The notes below the pieces were generated by a model, which did no database searches, had not been told where the DNA came from, and was given only the letters and a program-made list of their open reading frames with translations. Positions 15,018-31,291 of a stretch of 64,000 bases of DNA are shown here, piece after piece; the stretch's first letter is position 1, and each line of letters begins with the position of its first letter. Source of the DNA: Candidatus Nealsonbacteria bacterium (lineage in GTDB: Bacteria; Patescibacteriota; Minisyncoccia; Minisyncoccales; MHMH01); assembly GCA_016188865.1 (NCBI GenBank), contig JACPGX010000002.1, forward strand, positions 2,398 to 66,397, given 5' to 3'. The position numbers and the translations under genes were made by a program.

Positions 15018-16343
15018 TTATTTTTCTAATTTTTCTTTAAGAATTTCTAACAAATTATCTATTTTAACTCTGTCTTGTTTCATAGTGTCGCGGTCGCGGA
15101 TGGTTAAATCGTCTTTTTCTAAAGTTTCAAAATCTACAGTCAGACAAAATAACGTGCCGATTTCGTCCTGACGGCGGTACCTGCGGCCGATAGAGCCGGC
15201 TTCGTCGTATTGGCAGGCAAAATTATTTTTTAATAAATCAAAAACCTCCCTGGCCTTTTTGACTAATTCCGGCTTATTTTTCAGCAAAGGCAAAATAGCC
15301 ACTTTTACCGGAGCCAAAGATTTATGCAATTTTAACATCACTTCAACTTCTTTTACGGCTTCCGTTGTTTCCGTTCTGCCGCCCCTTATTTCCTCATAAG
15401 CATCTATTAAAAAAGCTAAAAAGCCTCTGTCTGCCCCTCCCGATGTTTCTATAATATGGGGGTAGTAACCTTCATATTTTAATTCTTTGCCGCAGTGCTT
15501 AGAATGATTAGACAAGTCCCAATCTCCCCTATTGTGAACGCCTTCAATTTCTTTCCAGCCAAAAGGAAACTTATACTCAATATCAACTGCTCTTTTGGCA
15601 TAATGAGCCAATTCTTCTTTATTAACTTCCCTGAATCTTAAATTTTCTTTTTTAATGCCCAAATTTAAATACCATTTCATTCTCTGCTCCTTCCAGTACT
15701 CAAAAAATTCCGGGGCTGTTTTGGGCTCGCAAAACCACTGCATTTCCATCTGCTCAAATTCACGAGTTCTGTAAATAAAATCCTTGGGAGTAATTTCGTT
15801 TCTAAATGATTTGCCAATTTGCGCCACCCCAAAAGGAATTTTTAAGCGCATTGAATTCACGATATTCTCAAAATTAACATAAATACCCTGACAGGTTTCG
15901 GCCCTTAAATAAGCCATAGCTGAATCTTCTTCTAAGGCGCCGACAAAAGTTTTCATCATCAAGTTAAACTTTCTGGGCTGAGTAATTTCTCCGCCGCAAT
16001 CCGGACATTTGTCTTTTTCCAAAAAATCTTTCCTAAACCTGTGGTGGCACTTTTTGCATTCCACCAACTCATCGGCAAAACCGGCTGATAAATGCCCGGA
16101 CGCCTGCCAAACTTTAGGGTTCATCATAATGGCGGAGTCCAGCCCCACAACAATTCCGCCAGCTGGCGGATTCTGCTTCCTTAACATTTCATCGCGCCAA
16201 GCATTTTTAATGTTATTTTTCATTTCCACGCCCAAGGGACCAAAATCATAACTCGATCCAAAACCGCCATAGATTTCAGACGATGGAAAAATAAAACCTC
16301 GGCGTTTGGATAAAGATATTATTTTTTGCAATAAGTCTTCCAT
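15018..16343 (-). CDS. glyQS: Glycyl-tRNA synthetase (class II, dimeric GlyQS type)
   Basis: RRGFIFPSSEIYGG, WQASGH, and the class II motif 3 region. Confidence 0.95.
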   Translation of the reverse strand: MEDLLQKIISLSKRRGFIFPSSEIYGGFGSSYDFGPLGVEMKNNIKNAWRDEMLRKQNPPAGGIVVGLDSAIMMNPKVWQASGHLSAGFADELVECKKCHHRFRKDFLEKDKCPDCGGEITQPRKFNLMMKTFVGALEEDSAMAYLRAETCQGIYVNFENIVNSMRLKIPFGVAQIGKSFRNEITPKDFIYRTREFEQMEMQWFCEPKTAPEFFEYWKEQRMKWYLNLGIKKENLRFREVNKEELAHYAKRAVDIEYKFPFGWKEIEGVHNRGDWDLSNHSKHCGKELKYEGYYPHIIETSGGADRGFLAFLIDAYEEIRGGRTETTEAVKEVEVMLKLHKSLAPVKVAILPLLKNKPELVKKAREVFDLLKNNFACQYDEAGSIGRRYRRQDEIGTLFCLTVDFETLEKDDLTIRDRDTMKQDRVKIDNLLEILKEKLEK

Positions 16344-19098: not shown

Positions 19099-22000
19099 TT
19101 ATAATTTCTTCACCGCAAGACTAAGTTTTTGCCGATCAACATTTATTTCCTTCTCGCCTTTACCCGGCTTAAAATCCTTAGCCTTAATTTCAGATAAAAT
19201 AAACTTTTTATTTTTACCTAAAATTCTATTTAATTCTGACGCACCGGAATACTGGACAAAAATTTTATCTTTTGGCTTAAAGCCGGCTTCCTTTCTCATC
19301 TCATTAATCTGGCGAATAACTTCTCGAATAATTCCCTCTTCTTTAAGCTCTGGGGTAATTTTCGTATCCAATATTAAAATATTGCTGAAAATAATTTTCT
19401 TGACGTTAACTTCTTCTTTTATGAACTCTGATAAACCTTTCTCCATTTTCTCGGGAATCACAAGAGAAGTTAGGGGTTGGCGAACTTTTATGCCAGTCTT
19501 AGCTCTTTCGGCCAAGGCCAAAGCCACAATTTCCCTGACCCTCGTCATTTTCTGATTTAATTTTTTATTAATCAATTTTTTATTAGCCTTGGGCCAATCA
19601 GCCAAGTGGATACTGCGAGAACGCTTCTCGTAATGACGAGAAACGTTCTCGTAAATTTGCTCGGAGAGGAAAGGAATAAAGGGGGCGGTTAATTTTGAAA
19701 CCGTTTGAAGAACCAAGGTCAGAGTGCCGACAGCTTCGTTAAAACGCTTGCGCGACCTTCTGATATACCACAAAGACAGATCGTTAACCACAAAATCTTC
19801 AATAGCTCTGGCCGCTCCTGTTACGTCGTATTTATCAAGATTATAAGTAGTTTCTGCAATTAACTCATTTAATCGGGAAACCACCCACTTATCTAATAAG
19901 TTTTTAGTTTTTAGTTTATAGTTTGTAGTTTTAATATTATAAGTTTTGTAGAAAGTAAAACAATTCCACAAAATCAAAATAAACTTTTTCAAAGCTTGGT
20001 CTATGTCTTTTTCTGTAAAAAGTTTTGAATCGCCGGACTGATTAACTGTGTAAAAATACCACCTAACAGCGTCGGCGCCATATTTTTCAACAATATACCA
20101 AGGGTCAACGACATTGCCCCTTGATTTTGACATTTTCTCTCCTTTCTCGTCTAAAACATGGCCAGTAGAAATTACATTTTTATAGGGCGCGCCTTTTCCC
20201 AAAAGTGTGGAAACCGCCAAAAGTGTATAGAACCAGCCGCGAGTCTGATCGATAGCCTCTGAAATATAATCAGCTGGAAATATGGCTCCGGAAGCGAACG
20301 GCATACTGCCCGAATCAAACCAAACATCGCAAACTTCCGAAACCCTTGCCATTTTTTCTCCGCATTTAGAGCAATAGAATTTAATTTCATCTATATAAGG
20401 CCGATGAAAATCAACCCTCCCCTCTTTATCCAGGGGTAAATTTTTAAAATCCAGCTTGCGCCACTCTCCGGTCTTTATGTCTTTTTTAGCTAATTTTATT
20501 TTCAATAATTTTTCGTCAGACAAACCCTTGACTGCTCCTTCTAAAAGCCACAATGGATCGCAATGGCTGACAATTAAAATAGTTTTATTTTTATGCTTTT
20601 GATCAATATCGCTTATAAAGCTCATCATTCTTTTTCTAACTTCGCCCCAATTTTCCCCGCCTTCGGGCTTTCTCCCGTAAAAACTGTCTACGCTTTTCGG
20701 AAAATCTTTAAAATATTTTTCTTTCTTTTTACCCTGATAAATGCCAAAATTCATATCTCTTAAGCGCATATCAGAAATTATTTCTGCGCCAAGTTCTTCA
20801 TTAACGAGCTGGGCTGTCTGACGGGTTCTGTTCATATCTGAAAAATAAATTATATCTATTTTCTTTATTTTAAGTTCTTTAGCGGCTTTTCTTACATCGC
20901 TCTCCCCACCCTTGCTTAATAATATGGGACTTTTTTCCGGCCAAGGATAAATATAATCTCCATTATTAACCTGATGGTTATTTTGGCCGTGCCGCATAAT
21001 ATAATATTTATTGGCTGAAAATTTTTGACCCAATAAATCATTTTTACCACCGATAACTTCCTTGAGCCCGCAACTCTGACAGCTCCAAATCGGCAAAGGT
21101 GTTCCCCAATATCTCTCTCGGGAAAAAGCCCAATCTTTCAGTTCTTTTAGCCACTCGCCGAATCTCCCGTCTTTTAAATGCGAGGGCACCCAATTGATTT
21201 TTTGGTTGTTGCCGATCAGGTCTTTTTTTACGTCCTGCATTTTTATAAACCAGCTCTCTTTGGCGTAATAAAGAAGCGGCGATTTGCAGCGCCAGCAGAA
21301 AGGATAATCATGCTCGTATAATTCTTCTTTAAAAAGAACTCCCCTCTCCTGCAGGTCTTTAATAATCAACGGGTCCGCATCTTTAACAAACATTTCATTC
21401 CACTCATAATCCGGCGTTATCATTTTGCCTTCTTCATTAACGGTCACTAATACTGGCAAATTATTCTCTTTTCCTACCTTCATATCATCCTCGCCAAAAG
21501 CCGGAGCAATATGCACCAAACCTGTACCGTCTTCCATGGAAACAAAATCGCCGGCAACTACGCGATATTTCGATGTCCGACCTCCCGACAAATCTGACGG
21601 GAGATCGGACATCCCAAATATCCGTTCATATTCTAATCCAATTAAGTCCCTACCCTTAAATTCTCCAACGATTTCTCCAACTATGCCGACTGGCTTCATT
21701 CTATCTTTAGCTAAAATCAGATATTCCTCACCAACTTTTATTTTTACATAAGTAAATTCCGGGTTTACCGCTACCGCAACATTCCCGGGCAAAGTCCAGG
21801 GCGTCGTCGTCCACACGAGCAAAGAAGAGTCCTTGAATTTTAAATTTTTAATCTTAAATCTTACATAAATTGAATTTTCTTCAATTCTTTTGTACCCCTG
21901 CGCCACTTCATGGGAAGACAAACTTGTCCCACACCTCGGACAATACGGCACTACTTTGTAATCTTTGTACAAAAGCCCTTTTTGATAAATTTGTTTTACT

Positions 22001-22467
22001 ATCCACCATAAAGTTTCGATATATTCATTTTCATAGGTGACATAAGGGTGCTCCATATCTAACCAATAGCCAATCCTTTCGGTTAATTTCTCCCAATCTC
22101 GCTTGTATTGCCAAACCGATTCTTTGCATTGCTTATTGAATTCAGCGATACCATATCTTTCAATGTCTTTTTTATTTTTTAAGCCCAGCTTTTTCTCAAC
22201 TTCCAGTTCTACGGGCAAACCATGGGTATCCCAGCCGGCTTTTCTCAAAACCCTAAAACCCTGCATGGTCTTATAGCGGCAAATAATATCTTTGAAGGCG
22301 CGGCTTAAAACATGATGAATACCCGGCTTCCCATTAGCCGTCGGCGGTCCCTCGTAAAACACAAAATCCCGCGCCCTAGCGCGCTGTTTGATGCTTTTCT
22401 CAAAAATCTTCTTTTCTTTCCAGAACTTCAATATCTCTTCTTCTTTCTGGGAAAAATTTAACTCCAT
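19099..22467 (-). CDS. ileS: Isoleucyl-tRNA synthetase (type 2) with an inserted histidine-phosphatase domain
   Basis: HIGH (PPTANGKPGIHHVLSR), KMSKS, editing-domain TTPWTLPGN and WFDSG motifs. A PGAM-type domain sits at about aa 486-686 (YIMRHGQ ... IVSHCDPL). Confidence 0.95.
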   Translation of the reverse strand: MELNFSQKEEEILKFWKEKKIFEKSIKQRARARDFVFYEGPPTANGKPGIHHVLSRAFKDIICRYKTMQGFRVLRKAGWDTHGLPVELEVEKKLGLKNKKDIERYGIAEFNKQCKESVWQYKRDWEKLTERIGYWLDMEHPYVTYENEYIETLWWIVKQIYQKGLLYKDYKVVPYCPRCGTSLSSHEVAQGYKRIEENSIYVRFKIKNLKFKDSSLLVWTTTPWTLPGNVAVAVNPEFTYVKIKVGEEYLILAKDRMKPVGIVGEIVGEFKGRDLIGLEYERIFGMSDLPSDLSGGRTSKYRVVAGDFVSMEDGTGLVHIAPAFGEDDMKVGKENNLPVLVTVNEEGKMITPDYEWNEMFVKDADPLIIKDLQERGVLFKEELYEHDYPFCWRCKSPLLYYAKESWFIKMQDVKKDLIGNNQKINWVPSHLKDGRFGEWLKELKDWAFSRERYWGTPLPIWSCQSCGLKEVIGGKNDLLGQKFSANKYYIMRHGQNNHQVNNGDYIYPWPEKSPILLSKGGESDVRKAAKELKIKKIDIIYFSDMNRTRQTAQLVNEELGAEIISDMRLRDMNFGIYQGKKKEKYFKDFPKSVDSFYGRKPEGGENWGEVRKRMMSFISDIDQKHKNKTILIVSHCDPLWLLEGAVKGLSDEKLLKIKLAKKDIKTGEWRKLDFKNLPLDKEGRVDFHRPYIDEIKFYCSKCGEKMARVSEVCDVWFDSGSMPFASGAIFPADYISEAIDQTRGWFYTLLAVSTLLGKGAPYKNVISTGHVLDEKGEKMSKSRGNVVDPWYIVEKYGADAVRWYFYTVNQSGDSKLFTEKDIDQALKKFILILWNCFTFYKTYNIKTTNYKLKTKNLLDKWVVSRLNELIAETTYNLDKYDVTGAARAIEDFVVNDLSLWYIRRSRKRFNEAVGTLTLVLQTVSKLTAPFIPFLSEQIYENVSRHYEKRSRSIHLADWPKANKKLINKKLNQKMTRVREIVALALAERAKTGIKVRQPLTSLVIPEKMEKGLSEFIKEEVNVKKIIFSNILILDTKITPELKEEGIIREVIRQINEMRKEAGFKPKDKIFVQYSGASELNRILGKNKKFILSEIKAKDFKPGKGEKEINVDRQKLSLAVKKL
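19901..19935. repeat. Heptanucleotide tandem repeat (TTTNTAG-like x5) inside ileS
   Basis: tttttag tttttag tttatag tttgtag ttttaat. Encodes YNIKTTNYKLKTKNL. Confidence 0.75.
21572..21613. repeat. Palindromic element (diverged full-length copy), in-frame inside ileS
   Basis: GATGTCCGACCTCCCGACAAATCTGACGGGAGATCGGACATC. Encodes MSDLPSDLSGGRTS on the minus strand. Confidence 0.8.
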
Positions 22468-23196: not shown

Positions 23197-23769
23197 TTAT
23201 ATTTTAAAAATTTCCCTTAGAAAATCATCATTTTCTATATTCTCGGCGGTGATTAAACGAACTTCGCGCTGTCCCAACCCAAAGAACTCCCTCAATAACT
23301 CTACCTCATCTTTGCAGGGATAAGGATTAATCCAAACGCTTTTCTGCAAAGGCAAAAAACCTAATTCCCTTAATTTTCCCCTGAAAGCATTCCGTTGTAG
23401 ATTTTTAAGCTGAATGATATCAAAAATTACTATTCGCCATTTTTTATCCCATTTTTTCGGCTTATTTATATTCAAACTGTCAATTTGAAACCTGCCGGCC
23501 AATTTTCTCCCTTTTTCCGTCAAAGAAATATAAATTTGATGATTTTTATTTATAATTTTAATACATCCTTGCCTTCTAAGATTATAAAAGGTGTCGGAAA
23601 CTTTTTTCGCTTTATACTTGTCTTTATTTTGAAATCCTTTAATAATATTCGTGGCAAAATGGGGAGAGGTAGCAGCGATGCAAACCGCACCGGCAACGGC
23701 CAGCCACTTAAAAACATCTTTGGTGATTTCTGATTTCGGTTTTCTAAAATAATATTTATATTTACTCAT
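23197..23769 (-). CDS. PaaX-like / Cas2-fold domain protein with N-terminal hydrophobic segment and wHTH-like middle (paralogue 1)
   Basis: KWRIVIFDI...LRNAFRGKLRELGF.PLQKSVWINPY resembles the Cas2-like ferredoxin-fold core of PaaX-family proteins. Paralogue at 62063..62635. Confidence 0.6.
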   Translation of the reverse strand: MSKYKYYFRKPKSEITKDVFKWLAVAGAVCIAATSPHFATNIIKGFQNKDKYKAKKVSDTFYNLRRQGCIKIINKNHQIYISLTEKGRKLAGRFQIDSLNINKPKKWDKKWRIVIFDIIQLKNLQRNAFRGKLRELGFLPLQKSVWINPYPCKDEVELLREFFGLGQREVRLITAENIENDDFLREIFKI

Positions 23770-23901: not shown

Positions 23902-25413
23902 CTACATTTTCTCCGGAGCGGAAATACCCATAAGAGAAAGGGTATTCTTTAAAACGATTTGGGTTGCTAACGACAGGGCTAAGCGGGCTTGAGTTAAATT
24001 TTTATCCTCGGAAATCACGTGGCAATCTCTGTAAAATTGATGGAAAACAGTCGCTAACTCCATTGCGTATTGAGGCAACCTTTGAAGCTGGTAATCCTTG
24101 GCAGTATCTTCAATAACTTCCGGCAATTTAATCAGCTGTTTAATTAAATCCAATTCACTTGCATGCGTTAATAATTTCACGTTTTCGGATTTCGGATTTC
24201 GGATTTCGGATTTCGCCAAAATACTGCATATTCTTGCGTGAGCGTATTGAACATAATATACCGGGTTTTTCTCCGACTGCTCTTTTGCCAAATCCAAATC
24301 AAAATTCAAATGGCTGTCATGGCTGCGGGTTAAAAAAAAGAATCGGGCAACATCCAATGAAACTTCTTCGATAAGTTCATCAATAGTTACGAATACTCCA
24401 GTCCTTTTAGACATTTTAACTTCTTTGCCAGCCTCAATTAACCTTACTAACTGATAGACAATCGGAGTAATTTTTTCTTTATCATATCCTAATGCCTGTG
24501 CTGCGGCCTTCAAGCGAGGGACGTAGCCGTGATGCTCTGCCCCTAAAAAAATTACTAACCAATCAAATCCTCTTCCAAATTTATTTTTTAAATAAGCGAT
24601 GTCAGAAAGGAAATAAGTTTCTTCTTCATAGGTCGTTTTCTTTTCCGCCCTAACCAAAACTCGATCTTTATCGTCGCCAAATTCCGTAGATTTAAACCAA
24701 ATAGCTCCATCTTTTTCATAAACAAGGCCTTTTTTCTTTAAAAAACCGGAAACTTGTTTTGCTTCTTTGGGATATAAAGATGTTTCATAAAACCATTTGT
24801 CAAATTTAATTCCCATTATTTTTGCCGTATTTTCTATTTTTTTAACAATATACTTTACTGCTTTATCAATGTCTTTTTCGCCTTTTTTAATCAACTTTTC
24901 GGTATATTCATTTTTATAGCCCTGCTTTCCCTCAAGAGTATCCTGCAGAACCTTAATTTGCCTGCCCCGGTCGTTAACATAGTATTCACGCCAAACCCTG
25001 TATCCGGCTTTATTAAAAACATTGGCTAAAACATCTCCGCAAAAGCCGCCTCGCGCATTGCCAACGTGAAGAGGGCCGGTAGGATTGGCTGAAATAAATT
25101 CCACGTTTACTTTTTTATTTTGGCCAATTTTTAAATTACCGAAATTATTTTTTTGTTTTAAAATTTCTCTGACCTGCTTTTGCAGATACTCTTTGGAAAT
25201 AAAAAAGTTAATGAAGCCGGGGCCGGCTGCTTCAACTTTTTCAAAAAGATTGGATTTCAGTTTGTTGATTATTTCTTTCGGGTCTTTTTTTAATCTAAAG
25301 GCGATGTTGGTTGAATAATCTCCATATTTTTTATCTTCCGGAGTTTCCAGTCTGACATCCTCTTCTCCGGTTGCTTTTTGAACCAATTTTACTATTTCTT
25401 GACGTATCATCAC
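23902..25413 (-). CDS. argS: Arginyl-tRNA synthetase
   Basis: SANPTGPLHVGNARG (HIGH region), the MSKRTG variant of KMSKS, and C-terminal YVQYAHARICSI. Confidence 0.95.
   Translation of the reverse strand: MMIRQEIVKLVQKATGEEDVRLETPEDKKYGDYSTNIAFRLKKDPKEIINKLKSNLFEKVEAAGPGFINFFISKEYLQKQVREILKQKNNFGNLKIGQNKKVNVEFISANPTGPLHVGNARGGFCGDVLANVFNKAGYRVWREYYVNDRGRQIKVLQDTLEGKQGYKNEYTEKLIKKGEKDIDKAVKYIVKKIENTAKIMGIKFDKWFYETSLYPKEAKQVSGFLKKKGLVYEKDGAIWFKSTEFGDDKDRVLVRAEKKTTYEEETYFLSDIAYLKNKFGRGFDWLVIFLGAEHHGYVPRLKAAAQALGYDKEKITPIVYQLVRLIEAGKEVKMSKRTGVFVTIDELIEEVSLDVARFFFLTRSHDSHLNFDLDLAKEQSEKNPVYYVQYAHARICSILAKSEIRNPKSENVKLLTHASELDLIKQLIKLPEVIEDTAKDYQLQRLPQYAMELATVFHQFYRDCHVISEDKNLTQARLALSLATQIVLKNTLSLMGISAPEKM
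24183..24217. repeat. Heptanucleotide tandem repeat (TTTCGGA x4 plus 1 degenerate unit) inside argS
   Basis: tttcgga x4 then tttcgcc. Encodes AKSEIRNPKSEN. The same unit occurs in the archease gene. Confidence 0.9.
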
Positions 25414-25439: not shown

Positions 25440-25468
25440 TTGACAAATTTCCCATTCTCTGATATCCT
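25440..25468 (+). promoter_or_regulatory. Putative promoter of the P1-P2 unit (TTGACA-N17-TATCCT, preceded by TGA)
   Basis: TTGACAaatttcccattctctgaTATCCT. The conserved leader starts 7 nt downstream. Confidence 0.5.
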
Positions 25469-25474
25469 ACTTTA

Positions 25475-25498
25475 TCTAGCAACTTGAAAATTTAATCG
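25475..25498 (+). promoter_or_regulatory. Conserved 5' leader box, copy 1 (TCTAGCAACTTGAAAATTTAATCG)
   Basis: Near-identical to 29290-29312 and at the same distance from a TTGACA-N17 promoter. Confidence 0.55.
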
Positions 25499-25521: not shown

Positions 25522-25833
25522 GTGGAAAGTATAATTGTCATACTCGTAGTTGCAGTTTCGTTTTTCATCATACCTATAGTCGTATTAATAGCAAACCAAA
25601 CTCATCCTAAGCCCAAGAAACCAAAAATCCTCTATTACAGACGGGAGCCAAATCCTAATGCTAGCTGGGATATTGCAAACCCCTATGACTACATTCCCGT
25701 TTATGAAGAGCAGAACGACAAAAATGTTTTAATCAACCCCTGGGAACCGGTGGATATTCCGAAAGAAAAAAGCGATAAACAAAATCACCCAATCAATCCC
25801 TGGGAAAAGAAAGTTTTGGAGGCAGGAAAATGA
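25522..25833 (+). CDS. Tail-family protein P1: single-pass membrane protein ending in the double-NPWE tail
   Basis: GTG start. One N-terminal TM followed by KPKKPK (tail predicted cytoplasmic). C-terminus is INPWEPVDIPKEKSDKQNHPINPWEKKVLEAGK. Stop overlaps the P2 start (ATGA). Confidence 0.65.
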   Translation: MESIIVILVVAVSFFIIPIVVLIANQTHPKPKKPKILYYRREPNPNASWDIANPYDYIPVYEEQNDKNVLINPWEPVDIPKEKSDKQNHPINPWEKKVLEAGK

Positions 25834-26327
25834 AACAAGATAGTGTTTTAACCGAAATGATTATAAAATTGTTAATAATTCTCTATAAAATATTTATTTT
25901 TTGGCCAATAAGGATTATCATTGCGCTTATTTACTACTTTATTCTTTACCCCTGGTTGGCTGCAATAAATGGTAAAGGCATAGATCCTCCCTTTGAAGCT
26001 TTAGCTTTGGATGATATGGATAGTTGTATATGCGCGCTCGTGGCGGACTTTTTTGTGATGATAACGATGATAATTATGCTGTACCAGAGTGCTCTTTGGG
26101 CGCCATTGGGCTATTTTATCTTCCGATTATTTTCTTATTTAGTTCCGTTGGCTTACTGCAAAGTGAAAGAGGAACAAATTTCTCTCCAGTCGCAACCCAA
26201 ACCTCAAGTGCAGTCTCAACCCAAGGCAACCAACCCCTGGGAGCCGGTGGATATTCCGAAAGAAAAAAATGATAAACAAAATCCCCCGATTAATCCATGG
26301 GAAAAGAAAGTTATAGAAATTAACTAA
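25830..26327 (+). CDS. Tail-family protein P2: multi-pass membrane protein ending in the double-NPWE tail
   Basis: Three to four TM segments. C-terminus is TNPWEPVDIPKEKNDKQNPPINPWEKKVIEIN. Confidence 0.7.
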   Translation: MKQDSVLTEMIIKLLIILYKIFIFWPIRIIIALIYYFILYPWLAAINGKGIDPPFEALALDDMDSCICALVADFFVMITMIIMLYQSALWAPLGYFIFRLFSYLVPLAYCKVKEEQISLQSQPKPQVQSQPKATNPWEPVDIPKEKNDKQNPPINPWEKKVIEIN

Positions 26328-26369: not shown

Positions 26370-26398
26370 TTGAACGAATGGGTGCGGGTGTATATTGT
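26370..26398 (+). promoter_or_regulatory. Putative promoter of P3 (TTGAAC-N17-TATTGT)
   Basis: TTGAACgaatgggtgcgggtgtaTATTGT, 30 nt upstream of the 26429 ATG. Confidence 0.35.
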
Positions 26399-26428: not shown

Positions 26429-26848
26429 ATGAATAATTCAGAATTATTGAGGGTAGTCACTGAAAGAACTAGGAGCGGGAAACTTCAGTGGCTTCAAAGG
26501 AAAAATACGTGGTGGTGTGATGTACGGCATGCTGAATTTGAATGTTATGGTTTGTCGCTGATATACTACCCCACATCTACCCCCTCGGATTTATGCCTGC
26601 GCATTGAGAATTACCAAAAATATATTGAATTAAGAGATAGAGGGTTCCGATTTTTTTCAAAACCAATTCATAAATTGTACGATCTGATCCGATATAAAAA
26701 TTTAATCCCGCCACAAACACTAAATCCGCATTCCAAAGATAGGCCTCAAGATCTTAATGTTTGGGAACCGGTCAATATCCCAAAAACTGCCAAAGAAAAA
26801 ATAGAAATCATCAACCCCTGGGAGAAGAAAGTGGCGGAAATCAACTAA
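26429..26848 (+). CDS. Tail-family protein P3: soluble protein ending in the double-NPWE tail
   Basis: ATG at 26429 preceded by GGGGGAAAGG. The track's 26378 start lacks an RBS. C-terminus is LNVWEPVNIPKTAKEKIEIINPWEKKVAEIN. Confidence 0.65.
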   Translation: MNNSELLRVVTERTRSGKLQWLQRKNTWWCDVRHAEFECYGLSLIYYPTSTPSDLCLRIENYQKYIELRDRGFRFFSKPIHKLYDLIRYKNLIPPQTLNPHSKDRPQDLNVWEPVNIPKTAKEKIEIINPWEKKVAEIN

Positions 26849-26851
26849 CAA

Positions 26852-26880
26852 AGAGCCTCAATAAAGAGGCTCTTTAAATT
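26852..26880 (+). terminator. Hairpin terminator after P3 (AGAGCCTC / GAGGCTCT)
   Basis: Duplicate of the P2 hairpin, followed by TTTAAATTTTT. Confidence 0.45.
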
Positions 26881-26910: not shown

Positions 26911-26971
26911 AATGCGTCTGAATGATTCAGATATTTTTGAGTACTTTAAAAATAAGGCGGGGAGGGCGAAT

Positions 26972-28672
26972 ATGTCTCCTGAAGATGAAAGATTAAGCCA
27001 GGTTATTGATTTCAGGGTCGGCAGAGGGGCTAAGGGAAAATATCCCATTGAAAGAAGGCCCCTTATTCCCGCTCCCTCAACTGATGGAAAAAAGATTTTT
27101 ATTCCAACGCCATTTCCTTTTTCCCAAGAAATGCTTATAGACACCATACGCCACGAAGCTGACCACATTAAAGAAATGGAAGACCTGTCGAGAAAAATCT
27201 CCAATAACCCAGCAACCGACGCCGCCAAGGAATATATTGAGAAATTTTTCTGGCGCAAGGAAGTTGAAGAAAACCCAACTCTAGCTTTTGAGATATTGAA
27301 TATCGTCTGGGATAACAGCATTGACGCTGCGGCCATAAAAGAATTGGCTGGTTCAAAAAGAATTTTTGAAAAAGAAAAACCAGGTATTTTAGCCAAAAGG
27401 CCGTCAACCGCTAGATTTAATGATTTAGATAAATTCCGCGAGCTATTCCTGCAAAAAACTCTGCTTGGCCAAACAAAGGAAGTAGTGCCGGAAAAATGGC
27501 AAACTCTGCTTGAAGAATGCGTTAATTATGCCAAAAATGCCCAAGGAAAAGATATTCCGGCTTACTTGGAGACTACTCAAAGCATATACCAAAAATTCAA
27601 GGAAAACTTTGATATCAAACAAAAACTCCAGAGATTGCCTCCTTTGCATGGCCGAGGAAAACCGGTAGAGGGTTTCCAAATTCCCCAAAATTATCGGGAA
27701 GAAGAAAATTCCAACCAAGGCAACGGCAAAAAAACATCCAAAAAGCCCAAAGAAAAAGAATCAAAAGAAAAAACGAACGAAACGCAAGAGAAAAACAAAC
27801 CACGGGAAAAATCTGAGGGGCGAAAAGAGCCAAAAGATAAGCGGGGAGAACAAAAGGAAACTCCCTGGCTGAATGAAGACAGAGATATTCTCAATCCAGC
27901 TCTTTTGGAACTTGAAGGCCGGGGAAAAGTCGGCGAAATAATCGGCAAACATTCTGGCGAGATTGAAAGAATGATTAAAATCTTCCGCCATTTAAAGCAA
28001 GAGGCCATGCTGCCCAAAAGGAAAAGGGACGGCCAAGAACTTGAGCTTGATGAATACATCCAGTCGGAATTGAAAAAAGAGGCGACCGGCGTTGATTCTC
28101 AAGAACCCATGTTTCTAAACGAAATAAAGAAAAAACCTAATCCAGCCTGGGCAATTTTGCAGGATATTAGCGGTTCAACCTCCGGCATCATCGAAGAACT
28201 GAAAGCCGCTTCAATCATTCTCGGCGAAACCATGAAAAGATCAAATTACCATTTCGGATTATATGCTTTCAACTCTGATGCTTCCGGCAAGGATTACCTG
28301 TATCCATTGAAAGACTTCGAAGAGAAATATTCTTTAGATTCTCTCAAAAAAATCCTTAACCTTCAAAGCGACGGCGGCACCGGCATGGCTGACGCCATTA
28401 AGTATCTTACGGAAAAACTGCTGAAACTACCCGGCTTCCCGCGAGGATTAATCGTAGTAACCGATGGAATGCCCAATAGGTTAGCTCCCGTTGAAAGAGT
28501 AATCAAGGAAGCTGCTTCAAGGGGCGTAATCGTAATTTTTGTCTGCGTTGGACAGCATTTGCCGGAAATAAGCAAAATCGTTAAAGAATATATTTCAATC
28601 AAGAACGAGGAAATTCATAAACTCCCGCAGGAAATGCTGGCAATTTTCAGAAAATACCGGCTGGCGAGGTGA
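26972..28672 (+). CDS. HExxH (putative metallopeptidase) plus K/E-rich linker plus vWA(MIDAS) protein, DUF2201-like architecture
   Basis: ATG at 26972 after GGGGAGGG (alternative upstream ATG at 26912). HEADH motif in DTIRHEADHIKEM. Low-complexity KE-rich stretch. MIDAS residues: DISGSTSG, SDGGTG, VVTDGMPN. Confidence 0.75.
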   Translation: MSPEDERLSQVIDFRVGRGAKGKYPIERRPLIPAPSTDGKKIFIPTPFPFSQEMLIDTIRHEADHIKEMEDLSRKISNNPATDAAKEYIEKFFWRKEVEENPTLAFEILNIVWDNSIDAAAIKELAGSKRIFEKEKPGILAKRPSTARFNDLDKFRELFLQKTLLGQTKEVVPEKWQTLLEECVNYAKNAQGKDIPAYLETTQSIYQKFKENFDIKQKLQRLPPLHGRGKPVEGFQIPQNYREEENSNQGNGKKTSKKPKEKESKEKTNETQEKNKPREKSEGRKEPKDKRGEQKETPWLNEDRDILNPALLELEGRGKVGEIIGKHSGEIERMIKIFRHLKQEAMLPKRKRDGQELELDEYIQSELKKEATGVDSQEPMFLNEIKKKPNPAWAILQDISGSTSGIIEELKAASIILGETMKRSNYHFGLYAFNSDASGKDYLYPLKDFEEKYSLDSLKKILNLQSDGGTGMADAIKYLTEKLLKLPGFPRGLIVVTDGMPNRLAPVERVIKEAASRGVIVIFVCVGQHLPEISKIVKEYISIKNEEIHKLPQEMLAIFRKYRLAR

Positions 28673-28675
28673 AAA

Positions 28676-29218
28676 ATGGAGTGGTTAATTAGGAGTTCAA
28701 AAGAAAAAAAAGAGCTGGAGATATTTGCGGTCGGAGGAAAGGACAAAAAGCTGGTTGCCAAAATTCTTGATGACTTTGTTTTGCAAAAACCGGAAGTCTT
28801 GCCCAAAAAAGCGCAAATCCAAAACTTAAATGGAAAAACCCTGGGTTTCATCGAAGCTTTTTATCCGGAAAAAGATGAAATTACAATTCTCTCCAGTCGG
28901 GGAAATTTGATCTCGCAACTCCAAAAAGGCAATAACCATCTGAAGGTTAGAGCAAGATTAAAGATGGGTTTCGTTTCTGGCGCTGTTAAGAAAGAAAAAT
29001 TCGAAATTATACCTTTGGCGCAGGCAGTTTTTAAAGAAAACTTAGGCGCCGGCATCCAGCAAATTTATTCTTTTGGAAAAGAAAAAATTTATTACTTTGA
29101 GAAAGACGATGAGATAGCCATTACCGTGAGAGGCGGAGCAAGATTTTTGAAATTTTTACCTCTTTTGCTTGCCCAAAGGGTTTGGCGGCAAGAGGAGATA
29201 AAAAAACTCTTATCATAA
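28676..29218 (+). CDS. Hypothetical 180-aa protein, apparent stand-alone homologue of the N-terminal domain of the neighbouring AAA ATPase
   Basis: By-eye alignment: KKLVAKILDDFVLQKPEVLPKK...GKTLGFIEAFYPEK versus KSPIAKVVFPDIAQNEVFLPVV...EEKIGEIQTWLPEE, and later EKFEI versus EKTFEI. Confidence 0.55.
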   Translation: MEWLIRSSKEKKELEIFAVGGKDKKLVAKILDDFVLQKPEVLPKKAQIQNLNGKTLGFIEAFYPEKDEITILSSRGNLISQLQKGNNHLKVRARLKMGFVSGAVKKEKFEIIPLAQAVFKENLGAGIQQIYSFGKEKIYYFEKDDEIAITVRGGARFLKFLPLLLAQRVWRQEEIKKLLS

Positions 29219-29235
29219 AACTAGAGATAAAAAAA

Positions 29236-29269
29236 ACCTTGTCAGTCACACACATTGACAAGGTTTTTA
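29236..29269 (+). terminator. Rho-independent terminator of the vWA unit
   Basis: ACCTTGTCA / TGACAAGGT 9-bp stem followed by TTTTT. The right arm doubles as the -35 of the next promoter. Confidence 0.7.
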
Positions 29270-29283
29270 TTTTCTGCTAAGCT
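29255..29283 (+). promoter_or_regulatory. Putative promoter of the P4-ATPase unit (TTGACA-N17-TAAGCT)
   Basis: TTGACAaggtttttattttctgcTAAGCT. The conserved leader starts 7 nt downstream, with the same geometry as at 25440-25498. Confidence 0.5.
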
Positions 29284-29289
29284 ATTTTG

Positions 29290-29312
29290 TCTAGCAACTT
29301 AAAAATTTAACG
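29290..29312 (+). promoter_or_regulatory. Conserved 5' leader box, copy 2 (TCTAGCAACTTAAAAATTTAACG)
   Basis: Matches 25475-25498 except for one substitution and one single-base indel. Confidence 0.55.
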
Positions 29313-29327
29313 AACGGGGTAAAAGAA

Positions 29328-29732
29328 ATGACGAAGACTAAAGAGCGGGGAATAACAAAAAATATCTGCATAATTTTGGGTATTACGGCTTGCGTTTATC
29401 TGTGGATGTTGATGGGTTTTTCTGATCATAAAAATCAATGGTGGGGCTGGGAGAAACCATGGAAATCGACAGAGGAGCATGCGATCGTTTATAAAATAGT
29501 GAGCATCCTATCCCCCTCGCCCTACCCTTACATCGGCAATTTCGCTACTGGAAATTATACTACTGGCAATACAATAATTCCTCCAGACCGAAAGGAAACT
29601 CTCGAAGAACCAGAAAAATGGAAAGAAACTTTAACCAATCCTTGGGATCCGGTGAATATTCCGAGGGAGGGCAAAAAGAAGGAGCCCCCAATCAATCCGT
29701 GGGAGAAGAAAATTTTGGAGGCAGAGCAATGA
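29328..29732 (+). CDS. Tail-family protein P4: single-pass membrane protein ending in the double-NPWE tail
   Basis: One TM (ICIILGITACVYLWMLMGF). C-terminus is TNPWDPVNIPREGKKKEPPINPWEKKILEAEQ. Stop overlaps the ATPase start (ATGA). Confidence 0.7.
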   Translation: MTKTKERGITKNICIILGITACVYLWMLMGFSDHKNQWWGWEKPWKSTEEHAIVYKIVSILSPSPYPYIGNFATGNYTTGNTIIPPDRKETLEEPEKWKETLTNPWDPVNIPREGKKKEPPINPWEKKILEAEQ

Positions 29733-31291
29733 AAGATTACCTGATTGTTTTTGAGGAAAAGGGAGTTTTTATTTTTGAGAGAGACACAAAAAAAAGTCCC
29801 ATAGCTAAGGTGGTTTTCCCCGACATCGCCCAAAATGAAGTTTTTCTGCCTGTAGTTTATCCGGTGTTATCGGCTAGCGAAGAAAAAATCGGCGAAATTC
29901 AAACTTGGCTACCCGAAGAGTGTCTATTCCGCAGCCGGATTAATTCCAAAATGTCCGAAACAATTAAAGACCAAAAAGTAATAAAAATAAAAGTAAAAAA
30001 CCTGATAGATGGAACGGAGAAAACGTTTGAAATCTATGGTCGGAACCGGCAAAACTTATCAAAAGAAGAGGCCGATAAATTAAAAGAGTACGGTTTTACC
30101 CGAGGTTTGGATATTATTCGAAACGAAAAAGTTGGCGCGATCGATTTTTACGAAAAAAAGGAAGGGCAAAGAGCGCTCTTAAAGCTTGCTGACAATCTAT
30201 CCTGGGAAGAATTCGCGATTTTAGCGGTGCTTGATAAAATTAATAATCAGCTCAAGGGCAAAAAAATAGCCGAGGAATTGATTAAGGTGACTGCCCCGAC
30301 AAGAGCTAAAACTAAAATTGTTTATAAAACACCGGAAAAAGAGGATGAGGAAAGGAAGGAAGTGGAGAAACACGCCGAGGCGGCGGATAGCTATCGAGAA
30401 TTTGTTGCCTCCCTTCCAGCTACCAGACAAGAAAGAGCAACTGAATATATCGACCAAAACGGCGAGTGGGATATTTTTAATGAATTCATGGATAGGCAAA
30501 AACCAGTTTTGATTAATGGCCCGACGGGCAACGGCAAATCAACGATGATTAAGTGGTATGCTAAAACTCGCGGCCAATCCTATTTTAAATATACCGGTCA
30601 CCGAGATACGGCCCTGAAAGATTTAGTCGGACTCTGGGTGCCGACTAGCGGAAAGCCCATTAAAGCTCCGGGTCCCCTAACTCTAGCTATGGTTCATGGA
30701 GGCATATTCCATTTTGAAGAAATCGGGCCGGTCAGCCAGGAAGTTCTTGAGGGCATTCATACCGTCCTTGATGATAAAGAAATCATTCTTGATTCCCAGT
30801 TCGGTTTTGAAGTGATAAAAGCTCACCCAGAATTCAAGATGGTATCCTCGGGAAATCTAAACAGGGGCTACACAGTGAATGAATTCAATGCCGCTTCCAT
30901 GGAGAGGTGGATTCAAATACGGCTGGGCTACCCGAATAAAGAAAACACTACTGAAATCATCGCTTCGGTAACCGGGATCGACAGACAAATCGCTGGAAAA
31001 TTGACTGAGATTACTTTTGAAATGAGAAATTTTCTCTTTCAAAACTACCAAATGGATTTCGGCTTGCGAGGCCCGGTAGCTGTGGCCGAGGCTTTCATGA
31101 ATAACTCCAATCAGCCCTTGATGAGACTAATCGAAGTTTGCATGATAAATCCGAAAGCGACCTATGACGAATCTGATTTGAGAAAAAGGTTAAGAGAAAT
31201 TGTTGAAAAACATTTCAATCTTGCGGATAGCGAACGAACTCCCGGAAACAGCAAAAAATTTGTTCCTCATAATAAGGCCCTGGACTCTTAA
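29729..31291 (+). CDS. AAA_5 (MoxR/CbbQ/NorQ-type) ATPase with an unassigned N-terminal region of about 260 aa
   Basis: Start at ATG 29729, after GGAGG and coupled to P4. The track's 29618 start overlaps P4 out of frame. Walker A is LINGPTGNGKST, Walker B is GGIFHFEEI, followed by SQEVLEGIHTVLDDKEIIL, typical of AAA_5. Confidence 0.8.
   Translation: MKDYLIVFEEKGVFIFERDTKKSPIAKVVFPDIAQNEVFLPVVYPVLSASEEKIGEIQTWLPEECLFRSRINSKMSETIKDQKVIKIKVKNLIDGTEKTFEIYGRNRQNLSKEEADKLKEYGFTRGLDIIRNEKVGAIDFYEKKEGQRALLKLADNLSWEEFAILAVLDKINNQLKGKKIAEELIKVTAPTRAKTKIVYKTPEKEDEERKEVEKHAEAADSYREFVASLPATRQERATEYIDQNGEWDIFNEFMDRQKPVLINGPTGNGKSTMIKWYAKTRGQSYFKYTGHRDTALKDLVGLWVPTSGKPIKAPGPLTLAMVHGGIFHFEEIGPVSQEVLEGIHTVLDDKEIILDSQFGFEVIKAHPEFKMVSSGNLNRGYTVNEFNAASMERWIQIRLGYPNKENTTEIIASVTGIDRQIAGKLTEITFEMRNFLFQNYQMDFGLRGPVAVAEAFMNNSNQPLMRLIEVCMINPKATYDESDLRKRLREIVEKHFNLADSERTPGNSKKFVPHNKALDS

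Follow-up and report, generated by a model that had tools for sequence, protein, structure and literature searches.

Four small genes in a 64-kb window (the whole stretch of DNA that was analysed) of a Nealsonbacteria genome code for proteins that end in a double-NPWE tail, and the question raised by this locus is what keeps the four tails alike: the copying of a DNA segment or selection on the peptide. The original prediction favoured the former and described the tail as a portable 3′ nucleotide cassette, which brings its own downstream junction and is shuffled by recombination or gene conversion onto variable gene bodies. Our analysis points to a different answer. The peptide tail common to the four genes probably works as an address label, by which proteins that are otherwise unrelated are marked as partners of the adjacent ATPase machine. 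From the sequence comparisons described below, we give a probability of about 0.6 to the reading in which the tail would be a docking tag for a machine of the NorQ/NorD type, kept by peptide selection with a limited number of DNA copying events in addition.

Four tail-bearing genes and their signals

The tail is present on four co-directional genes, P1 to P4, and nowhere else in the window. The tail-coding segments, all on the forward strand as are the other features described here, had been placed correctly at 25732-25830 (P1), 26229-26324 (P2), 26753-26845 (P3) and 29634-29729 (P4), and they read as described. A six-frame scan of the window for N[PV]W[ED] produced nine matches: eight are the two half-motifs in each of the four tails, and the ninth is a stray match at position 15779 in a non-coding frame. 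The tails (e.g. TLTNPWDPVNIPREGKKKEPPINPWEKKILEAEQ) are hydrophilic (mean hydropathy between -0.7 and -1.5), lack any hydrophobic stretch and are rich in acidic and aromatic residues.

Ahead of the tail, P1 (25522..25833, 103 aa) has one N-terminal transmembrane helix (hydropathy 3.41, aa 4-22); a Pfam search with this protein gave no match. P2 (25830..26327, 165 aa) is a multi-pass membrane protein, whose body weakly matches a tail-bearing 142-aa membrane protein of the sister genome L011 (IYYF[IL].PWL, E=0.003). The body of P3 (26429..26848, 139 aa; 156 aa with a start at 26378) is soluble, having no hydrophobic segment, and the first half-motif of its tail reads NVWE. P4 (29328..29732, 134 aa) has one transmembrane helix. 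The four bodies form no repeat family, and there was no BLASTP match among them outside the tail.

The final codons of P1, TTGGAGGCAGGAAAATGA, supply a ribosome binding site (RBS) and an overlapping start for P2; the end of P4 does the same for the ATPase gene, whose start overlaps the P4 stop (ATGA). This part of the original prediction was confirmed. Upstream of P1 the promoter scan matched a TTGACA-17-TATCCT promoter with TG, followed by a 21-nt leader TCTAGCAACTTGAAAATTTAA (25440..25495). The promoter and leader of P4 (29255..29310) are paralogous to this region, with 79% identity over 56 nt; the leaders agree at 20 of the 21 positions, and only these two copies exist in the window.

Downstream of P3 we found an intrinsic terminator (26850..26875; -16.6 kcal/mol, z -6.7), a GC-rich stem-loop with a 10-bp stem and a 6-nt loop and then a U-tract, AAATTTTT; the TTGACA promoter of the next gene, coding for a VWA protein, comes after it. 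The hairpin 3′ of P2 (26329..26351; -12.8 kcal/mol, z -3.3) is a copy of this stem-loop in which the stem is present without the U-tract, the next bases being CTTAATCAG and not a T run. The hairpin sequence AAAGAGCCTCAAYAAAGAGGCTC occurs in exactly two copies in the window (0/100 shuffles). One more terminator hairpin (29225..29275; -21.5 kcal/mol), that of the VWA-p180 unit, overlaps the P4 promoter.

DNA likeness between the tail copies

The closest pair of tails is P1 and P2, with 89% identity over 90 nt (25731-25820 versus 26228-26317). Across motif 1, the linker and motif 2, 74 of 81 nt are alike, including 23 of the 27 nt of the linker, a part that is otherwise non-conserved. The borders of this block are sharp, as identity falls to 8/30 upstream and 9/45 downstream; the two tails are indeed nearly identical and the parts upstream of them are not, as had been noticed. 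P1 and P4 share 88% identity over 48 nt, through ...TTGGAGGCAG...ATGAAA, and P2 and P3 share 84% over 68 nt, with stop codon and hairpin included (38/45 for the last codons plus the hairpin). Likeness past the stop codon does come in the two predicted flavours, the GGAGG/ATGA junction in P1/P4 and the stop plus hairpin in P2/P3.

Synonymous sites of the tails were compared by counting same codons at identical, degenerate amino-acid positions against the expected number. Same codons were in excess for P1/P2 (19/24 versus 12.0 expected, P=0.002). For P1/P4 the count was 12/18 versus 8.0 expected (P=0.04); without the three codons that make the GGAGG RBS it fell to 9/15 versus 6.9 (P=0.18). The other four pairs were at expectation; among them, the P2 and P3 cores are synonymously saturated (same codon in 7/18 positions, with 9.0 expected). 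The tails are more alike in DNA than the bodies, which form no repeat family; likeness beyond the need of the protein is found for P1/P2 only, the remaining five pairs being at expectation.

A recent copying of the single P1/P2 block is needed because of the 74/81 likeness that includes the linker, the drop of identity at both edges and the synonymous excess. The P2 tail as a whole is a mosaic with a P1-like core and, in its last five codons, a P3-like end. Gene conversion of a 3′ segment is a tenable account of the P1/P2 block and the P2 mosaic; the other pairs, with codons at expectation, speak against extending it to them. Only the P1/P2 block and the copied hairpin need an event at the DNA level, and recent copying accounts for no more than a part of the DNA likeness.

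The idea that tail DNA brings along its own junction fails on the same comparisons: P1 and P2 have the same core with different junctions, and P2 and P3 have the same junction with saturated cores. Nor do P1 and P4 share only a 3′ module, their promoter and leader being alike as well; with both 5′ and 3′ parts in common, the pair looks like a case of whole-gene paralogy or shared regulation. All tail copies are in direct orientation and reside in expressed-looking genes, none being inverted; gene list and Pfam revealed neither a recombinase nor a reverse transcriptase in the locus. A search for alternative body-tail combinations gave none in three other assemblies (Logan contigs), all 100% identical to the window.

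The adjacent machine and related loci

The ATPase gene (29729..31291) codes for a 520-aa AAA+ protein in which a disordered linker (182-244) connects an N-domain (1-180) with a MoxR core of the CbbQ/NorQ type. Pfam assigned AAA_5 (PF07728, E=1.3e-15) and CbbQ_C (PF08406, 21.7 bits, just over the cutoff of 20.6); the match to the GvpN model of NCBIfam was weak, far under cutoff. The AF2 model had a mean pLDDT of 71, with values of mostly 70-90 in the core, and its best Foldseek hits were NorQ (9qh9/9qh4) and CbbQ (6l1q/5c3c), with E ~1e-18 and 24-26% identity.

The VWA protein (26912..28672, 586 aa; 566 aa with the start at 26972 of the public gene call) is NorD/CbbO-like. Its N-domain, with the invariant motifs HExDHIxE and ENP, is joined by a K/E-rich linker to a VWA domain (Pfam PF00092, E=2e-8) with invariant MIDAS residues D418, S422, T423 and D518, which read DISGS...T...D in the window. 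In the N-domain H81, E82, D84, H85, E88 and E120-N121 are invariant among 14 VWA homologues. The profile of the family detected NorD (9qhd_G) with E=8e-15 in hmmsearch. The ATPase and the VWA protein are homologues of NorQ and NorD.

The third component, p180 (28676..29218, 180 aa), is a stand-alone paralogue of the N-terminal domain of the ATPase that is kept with the system. This relationship is visible only by profile-profile comparison (hhalign probability 97%, E=4.8e-11, 163 columns), as pairwise BLASTP was not significant (E=0.22). An AF2 model of p180 built with 24 homologues was too poor for a fold search (mean pLDDT 56). Its database relatives make 39 protein clusters, unnamed or 'hypothetical', and the few source names are 'hypothetical' too. 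In the stretch examined (22-34 kb) we saw none of the nor, cbb or Rubisco genes; the neighbours of the locus are argS, ileS, a gene of the zinc-type alcohol dehydrogenase family (ADH_N/ADH_zinc_N), an aminotransferase class I/II gene and smpB.

Relatives of the ATPase were found in 45 metagenome loci and one Pacearchaeota genome. Such loci usually hold also a NorD-like VWA gene (27 loci) and p180 (23 loci), along with 1-12 genes ending in NPW[ED]-x-x-IP[KE]. In the 45 loci a C-terminal NPW-type motif was observed in 67 of 219 co-directional ORFs near the core genes versus 2 of 315 other ORFs. The gene that ends at the ATPase start usually has the motif where upstream sequence exists. In the majority of related loci whose sequence extends far enough upstream, a tail gene precedes the ATPase, and in the window P4 occupies this position; the Pacearchaeota genome carries three NPW-type tail genes around the same core.

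Tail proteins are 50-383 aa long, with bodies that are membrane proteins in many cases and apparently soluble in others, and the tails follow low-complexity linkers. When stripped of their tails, 72 bodies from all loci fell into ~20 BLAST clusters, and no Pfam family was assigned to the bodies tested; a Pfam search with ten tail-locus proteins from other loci, nine of them tail-bearing, gave nothing over threshold. At the protein level, then, a constant tail on variable bodies is a correct description. In the same 72 genes, 43 tail-gene ends overlap the start of the next ORF and 23 more lie ≤15 nt away from it; an ending of the GGAGG/ATGA kind is the usual arrangement in this system and not the mark of a cassette. 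The sister genome has small tail proteins of 53-58 aa, an M16 peptidase gene within the locus and a different terminator hairpin behind each tail gene.

In loci with 12 and 8 copies of the identical peptide NPWDIDIPKI, the same-codon fractions were 0.44 versus 0.45 expected and 0.37 versus 0.47 expected, respectively. Such random choice of synonymous codons in loci with 8-12 copies indicates that selection acts on the peptide. A role of the tail-coding DNA at the RNA level was considered as well and set aside for the same randomness of codons in multi-copy loci. Some other loci have recently duplicated tails as well, among them L034 (0.86 versus 0.54) and L039 (0.81 versus 0.56).

Within a locus all copies speak a common tail dialect, such as KNPFE..LPR, PDPWSIKTPEIK or ITNPW..DIPEIKN, the window having WEPV[DN]IP. 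The residue after Trp is variable (NPWM, NPWQ, NPWG, DPWS, DPWK), with an acid usually at W-2, W+1 or W+3. NP is missing from tails of the Aerophobetes type (DVWRI..P...DKVWEE), which are equated with the others by their position and pattern only. When run against 1.84 billion representatives, a profile of the window tails retrieved only the four proteins of the window itself, and a word-indexed search of 5.8 billion proteins gave three candidates, none of which scored; the connection of the window tail with the wider motif rests on synteny and the short motif, as there was no significant profile score. Within the libraries searched, no other species had the exact double-NPWE form. A strict degenerate pattern written for the DNA of the double tail had no match in genome_contigs, where we found no confirmed relative of the ATPase either; IMG/VR viral contigs had no relatives of the ATPase family, and no defence-system model of PADLOC matched. 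Literature searches on the motif strings and on MoxR/VWA in DPANN returned nothing relevant, and the family libraries had no description.

A proposed docking tag, its alternatives and known systems

We propose that the double-NPWE tail would act as a short C-terminal docking peptide that marks unrelated small membrane and soluble proteins, P1 to P4, as partners of a machine with three parts: the MoxR AAA+ protein of the NorQ/CbbQ type with its extra N-domain, the NorD/CbbO-like VWA protein with intact MIDAS, and p180 as a free copy of the N-domain. The four tails would then stay alike mainly through selection on the peptide, since one and the same receptor has to accommodate every copy. Three DNA events may have added to this: a stretch of ~80-90 nt recently shared between the neighbouring P1 and P2 tails by gene conversion or partial duplication; the copying of the P3 terminator behind P2; and, for the promoter, leader and RBS/start junction common to P1 and P4, paralogy combined with the translational coupling that is standard in the system.

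What we observed is what one expects of a docking peptide: bodies with no relation to each other end in one short conserved motif, their genes lie next to that of the presumed receptor, and it is the peptide and not the DNA that is kept; the dialects within loci are predicted by co-evolution with one receptor. The tail would bind the machine physically at one of two candidate sites: the MIDAS of the VWA protein, by way of an acidic residue beside Trp, or the N-domain of the ATPase or p180. A precedent for docking is CbbQO, which requires the C-terminal motif of the large subunit of Rubisco to be in the correct position, is stimulated in its ATPase activity by the isolated C-terminal peptide and engages an acidic residue of the client at its MIDAS site (PMC4660213); for the MIDAS site of NorD, a sixth ligand coming from the target has been proposed (PMC13036017). 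Since some tails have a non-acidic residue behind Trp, a contact of MIDAS with a carboxylate at this position would not be universal. Also, the charges of the P4 helix, judged by eye with the positive-inside rule, could place its C-terminus outside the cell, which would be a poor fit to a cytoplasmic receptor and counts against docking.

The alternative nearest to the original prediction is a mobile 3′ DNA module, grafted with its junction onto one body after another, so that DNA homogenisation would be the main cause of the likeness. It would account for the P1/P2 block with its sharp borders and synonymous excess, the mosaic P2 tail, the noncoding identity past the stops of P2 and P3 (the 38/45 block) and the duplicated tails of L034 and L039. 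We regard it as unlikely, given that five of the six window pairs have no synonymous excess, core and junction have different partners, P1 and P4 are alike in the 5′ flank too, codons are random in loci with 8-12 tails, hairpins differ between the sister-genome tails, and the locus has neither inverted copies nor a recombinase or reverse transcriptase, with no variants in the three assemblies.

Somewhat less probable still is a degron or cleavage tag, a sub-case of docking with proteolysis as the output, in which HExDH of the VWA N-domain would be a zincin protease site. The invariance of the residues in this region among the 14 homologues, the low-complexity linkers ahead of the tails and the M16 peptidase gene of the sister locus would all suit such a role; yet no peptidase model of Pfam or NCBIfam matches, NorD, which is not a protease, has AHASD in its weak alignment to this region, and the MoxR clade in question was described as remodelling its clients rather than threading them (PMC13036017). 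A signal for export or sorting, or a recognition sequence of RiPP type, with the ATPase nearby by coincidence or only for regulation, seems to us the most improbable by a good margin. Although several of the small proteins in the sister genome (53-58 aa) resemble precursor peptides with a conserved follower, and many tail proteins are membrane proteins, others reach ~380 aa or are apparently soluble. To our knowledge, known C-terminal sorting signals contain a hydrophobic stretch, and the tail is hydrophilic and has none. Moreover, RiPP-type maturase domains (radical SAM, YcaO, LanM and similar) were absent from the annotated proteins of the locus, and the 67/219 versus 2/315 distribution of the motif near and away from the ATPase spans bacteria and archaea.

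Under the docking reading, the tail may be part of a wider code. We would lay even odds on its being a genome-encoded client code for an undescribed AAA+/VWA machine of the NorQ/NorD type in lineages with reduced genomes (CPR bacteria and DPANN archaea) and in Aerophobetes, one that would recognise up to a dozen unrelated proteins, membrane-bound as well as soluble, via one address peptide and then remodel, assemble or activate them. Clients of most MoxR-VWA pairs are unknown, client choice having been studied in two or three systems only; in this case the genes of the presumed clients lie next to those of the machine, and the clients have in common a 10-residue tag whose changes go together within each locus. 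If this is true, the client list of a MoxR protein could be read straight from the genome, and the variation of the tag from locus to locus would provide natural co-variation data from which the receptor site could be mapped. Four parts now annotated as hypothetical emerge from the analysis as one gene set that is conserved in CPR, DPANN and Aerophobetes genomes, and the case shows a way to separate constraint on a peptide from gene conversion.

Several known systems bear comparison. The vWA-MoxR ternary conflict systems (VMAP, iSTAND; Kaur et al. 2020, PMC7159879) also combine a MoxR-VWA pair with variable, lineage-diversified components. Differences are that the best VMAP match, for one of ten tail-locus proteins scanned, was not significant (VMAP-M9, 14.9 bits, E=0.03), that the VWA protein has no Pfam effector domain and no EAD domains were recognised, and that the ATPase here is of the NorQ/CbbQ group with its own N-domain, with no PADLOC match and no members in IMG/VR. 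Shufflons, silent-cassette antigenic variation and DGRs differ in that excess DNA identity is seen here in one pair and not in all copies; there is no recombinase, reverse transcriptase, inverted or silent copy, and the three assemblies are identical. Concerted evolution of tandem paralogues resembles the P1/P2 case in its block with sharp borders, synonymous excess and the P2 mosaic, but it applies to one pair only, the other likeness being explained by peptide selection.

Encapsulin cargo-loading peptides and the ssrA tag for ClpXP are C-terminal peptides by which cargo proteins of unrelated kinds are brought to a single receptor. The tail shares with them its short C-terminal form, the flexible linker and the unrelated proteins carrying it, with genes lying here beside the presumed receptor; unlike them, it has an unrelated motif, its receptor would be MoxR/VWA and not a shell or an unfoldase-protease, and the binding is predicted. 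The closest known systems are CbbQ/CbbO and NorQ/NorD, with a homologous ATPase core and VWA protein, neighbouring genes and an intact MIDAS, and in CbbQ/CbbO the client is recognised partly by a positioned C-terminal peptide and an acidic residue at MIDAS (PMC4660213). Unlike in both systems, the ATPase described here has an extra 180-aa N-domain with a free copy, p180; the invariant HExDH of the VWA N-domain is absent from NorD; and the presumed clients are not one enzyme (Rubisco, cNOR) but 1-12 unrelated tagged proteins.

The seven-gene array and its tails

An array of seven co-directional genes is bordered by argS (23902-25413, minus strand) on one side and, from 31360, by a gene of the zinc-type alcohol dehydrogenase family (ADH_N/ADH_zinc_N) on the other; G+C content of the window is 40%. 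All seven are on the plus strand: P1 (25522-25833, 103 aa), P2 (25830-26327, 165 aa), P3 (26429-26848, 139 aa), a gene for a NorD/CbbO-like VWA protein (26912-28672), p180 (28676-29218, 180 aa), P4 (29328-29732, 134 aa) and an AAA_5 ATPase gene (29729-31291). P1-P4 are the small genes ending in a double NPWE tail; a single N-terminal hydrophobic helix is present in P1 and in P4, several in P2 and none in P3. On the minus strand nearby, the isoleucyl-tRNA synthetase (19099-22467, 1122 aa) has a histidine-phosphatase domain inserted in its class-I catalytic domain (aa 489-662, His_Phos_1, E = 3.6e-33), and the middle domain of a 190-aa protein encoded next to argS (23197-23769) is of the PaaX_M (Cas2-like) type (E = 2.7e-18).

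Read up to the stop codon, the tails are INPWEPVDIPKEKSDKQNHPINPWEKKVLEAGK (P1), TNPWEPVDIPKEKNDKQNPPINPWEKKVIEIN (P2), LNVWEPVNIPKTAKEKIEIINPWEKKVAEIN (P3) and TNPWDPVNIPREGKKKEPPINPWEKKILEAEQ (P4). All four were found where the original prediction had placed them, and a six-frame scan of the 64 kb gave no further tail. With a repeat finder we recovered every DNA similarity described there, at 89% over 90 nt for P1/P2, 88% over 48 nt for P1/P4 (spanning GGAGG and ATGA) and 84% over 68 nt for P2/P3 (spanning the stop and the hairpin). No similarity was returned within the gene bodies; the hairpin sequence after P2 and P3 has two copies in the window and is absent from shuffles. The sequence pattern is real.

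Peptide or DNA conservation

The tail had been proposed to be a portable 3′ nucleotide cassette, more alike as DNA than its amino acids require. We counted same codons at tail positions with an identical amino acid having synonymous codons, taking the expectation from codon usage of 26 long ORFs of the window. An excess was observed for P1-P2 (19/24, expected 12.0, P = 0.002). The P1-P4 signal (12/18, expected 8.0, P = 0.04) was gone without codons TTG GAG GCA, which together make up the ribosome-binding site for the gene that follows (9/15, expected 6.9, P = 0.18). Same-codon counts of the remaining pairs did not differ significantly from expectation: P1-P3, 8/16 (7.9); P2-P3, 7/18 (9.0); P2-P4, 9/18 (8.0); P3-P4, 8/15 (7.6). 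As only P1-P2 is in excess once the ribosome-binding codons are dropped, the tails of the window are old at silent sites and kept alike at the peptide level, with the exception of P1-P2; for this pair alone is the likeness beyond amino-acid need upheld.

Similar counts came from metagenome loci with a related ATPase. The 12 tails of locus L032 have the form [ND]PW[DS]I[DE]IP[KE]I, exactly NPWDIDIPKI in nine, with a same-codon fraction of 0.44 versus 0.45 expected; for the eight tails of L026 the values are 0.37 and 0.47. The tail dialect differs from locus to locus and is common to all copies within one locus. Random codons combined with locus dialects point to selection by a common receptor acting on the tail peptide, with occasional duplication or conversion; obvious recent tail duplicates were seen in a few loci (L034, L039 and L027).

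In the P1-P2 exception, motif 1 is identical at 29/30 nt, motif 2 at 22/24 and the linker between them, which P3 and P4 do not conserve, at 23/27; identity is only 8/30 directly upstream and 9/45 directly downstream of this core. Past motif 2, P2 matches P3 at 38/45 positions, 30 noncoding bases among them, and P1 matches P4 at 17/20 (TTGGAGGCAGnnnAATGAAA). Thus, the P2 tail is chimeric, with its core resembling P1 and its end P3, which would fit either a recent partial duplication or a conversion tract of ∼80-90 nt between the neighbouring genes P1 and P2. As a genuine terminator, the hairpin after P3 has its U-tract; since the P2 copy has the stem without the U-tract, it looks like a decaying copy of the P3 terminator. 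Recombination or gene conversion may be retained for the P1-P2 event and the copied hairpin, but not as a general explanation.

The 5′ flank is also common to P1 and P4, with a TTGACA-17-TAnnCT promoter and, directly 3′ of it, a 21-nt leader, TCTAGCAACTTRAAAATTTAA (25475-25495 and 29290-29310, plus strand; 20/21 identical). Core, junction and promoter each pair the genes differently, which is the opposite of one cassette carrying its own junction, and this part of the original prediction is not supported. We found no further copies of the leader elsewhere in the window or in related loci; it could be an operator or leader RNA element co-regulating the P1 and P4 units. The terminator-promoter junction after P3 (26876-26905, TTTAAATTTTTGACAAAAATCTAAATTGGTGCTAAGGT) resembles by eye a junction after a tail gene in a sister genome (L011 5475-5515, TTGACAAAATAAAATTGGTTTGCTAAAAT).

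Of the 72 tail genes in the loci taken together, 43 run into the next ORF start, mostly by 4 or 8 nt, and a further 23 stop no more than 15 nt away from it; a Shine-Dalgarno-like string is present in the last codons of 47. The codons of the post-motif residues (GGKKNE, LEAGK and EEEGCIK, each before the stop) hold the ribosome-binding site and start codon of the next gene. Judging from these junctions, the P1/P4 ending, which indeed supplies a ribosome-binding site and start as had been noted, is how genes of this array are ordinarily coupled in translation rather than a property of a cassette. The P2/P3 ending looks like the end of a transcription unit.

Spread of the motif and the tail-protein bodies

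An NCBI MAG protein assigned to Candidatus Nealsonbacteria (CPR) matches the ATPase at 100% identity, which places the window in a genome of that lineage. Homologues of the ATPase are found on short CPR-like contigs (56%, 53% and 42% identity) and in Aerophobetes (about 40%); a metagenome scan with the ATPase family alignment returned 45 loci. The viral contigs of IMG/VR yielded no relative of the ATPase. The sister genome (L011, L010 and L004), whose ATPase is 56% identical, encodes homologues of the VWA protein and of p180 and no fewer than five tail proteins, with ends ...SNPWEEEIEIPKKEEFSHLSPWE, ...KIWEEEIEFPERKKKSVSNPWE, ...KVWEEEIELPKKEKTKAENPWDEEEGCIK, ...QLWEKEIEIPEIKKEKANLNPWE and ...IWDGDFDFPSNPWD, each at the stop and followed by a different hairpin or an overlapping next gene. 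Among the more distant loci, where upstream sequence suffices, the gene ending at the ATPase start usually bears a C-terminal motif of this type: ...F[IV]NPWE[VI]xIPK[LI]GGKKNE at the stop, ...IPNPWDIDIPKIEN..., ...ITNPWxxDIPEIKN..., ...KNPFEYDLPRIDK..., ...PDPWSIKTPEIK... or, in Aerophobetes, ...DVWRIxIEEP...DFDKVWEE.... There are 1 to 12 tail genes per locus, located before the ATPase gene and between the ATPase and VWA genes. We found the motif in 67 of 219 co-directional ORFs close to core genes versus 2 of 315 other ORFs.

This gene layout, with three tail genes, was also observed in a DPANN archaeon (L055 4824-10543, in Pacearchaeota GCA_016181885.1; and L056). One of these copies comes from a sequencing run in the SRR121134xx series, the same series as the window genome, a hint that small-genome lineages living side by side have exchanged the set. 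In Aerophobetes-type loci (L005 13489-15386; L007 5426-7326; L012) two Band_7 (SPFH/stomatin-like) genes lie after the VWA gene, and in L005 an HSP20 gene is upstream; these neighbours may point to a role at the membrane. In L008 1-113 (ATPase 53% identical) the tail halves KVWEEDTKLP... and ...IPNPWE (at the stop) are in different frames, 52 nt apart, which reflects either decay of the tail gene or misassembly at an A-run.

With the tail and the preceding 15 residues removed, bodies of the 72 tail proteins formed six multi-member BLAST clusters and 14 singletons, P1-P4 being among the latter. Among the clusters are soluble proteins of ∼200 aa, hydrophobic and probably membrane-bound ones of ∼170 aa, and the class preceding the ATPase. 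None of the bodies tested matched a Pfam family, and P2 has only a short membrane motif in common with a tail-bearing 142-aa protein of the sister genome (E = 0.003). Given such unrelated bodies, the tail is modular at the protein level; the idea of a constant module on variable bodies is sound in this sense, but not for a nucleotide cassette.

A NorQ/NorD-type machine and its presumed clients

The ATPase matches AAA_5, with a CbbQ_C match barely over threshold; in its AF2 model, a beta-rich N-domain predicted with confidence (1-180) is joined by a disordered linker (182-244) to the AAA core, for which the best solved structures are NorQ and CbbQ (E about 1e-18). The VWA protein profile matches NorD (E = 8e-15), and residues of its metal site (MIDAS) are invariant. 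Its N-domain carries HExDHIxE (aa 81-88; 27152-27175) and ENP (aa 120-122; 27269-27277), invariant in 14 homologues and resembling a zincin-like site; NorD has AHASD at the position aligned with HExDHIxE. p180 is a paralogue of the ATPase N-domain (29729-30270; hhalign probability 97%, E = 4.8e-11) that occurs as a protein of its own. Its AF2 model is too weak for a fold to be assigned (pLDDT 56), and among its 39 database clusters the few with a source name are all ‘hypothetical’.

Neither PADLOC nor NCBIfam has a model describing this gene set, and literature searches found no description of the system. The tail points to a conserved, so far undescribed NorQ/NorD-type system and labels its presumed clients in the genome itself, a more interesting outcome than the cassette idea.

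The closest studied pairs suggest how the tails could work. CbbQO recognises its client only if a C-terminal motif in the large subunit of Rubisco is in the right position; this C-terminal peptide on its own stimulates the ATPase, and an acidic client residue is engaged by the CbbO MIDAS site (PMC4660213). In NorQD, the sixth MIDAS ligand is proposed to come from the target, with the VWA finger being twisted by the ATPase (PMC13036017). By analogy, the NPW tail on its flexible linker would dock P1-P4 to the VWA MIDAS and/or the ATPase N-domain, p180 may act as a free competitor or adaptor, and ATP hydrolysis would lead to tagged proteins being remodelled, assembled or released at the membrane; P4 is of uncertain topology. 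The double motif of this lineage, with Trp residues 19-20 apart and also seen in the sister genome, L034_4497, L032_1280 and Aerophobetes, could allow two-site binding. An acidic residue beside the Trp is frequent, not invariant.
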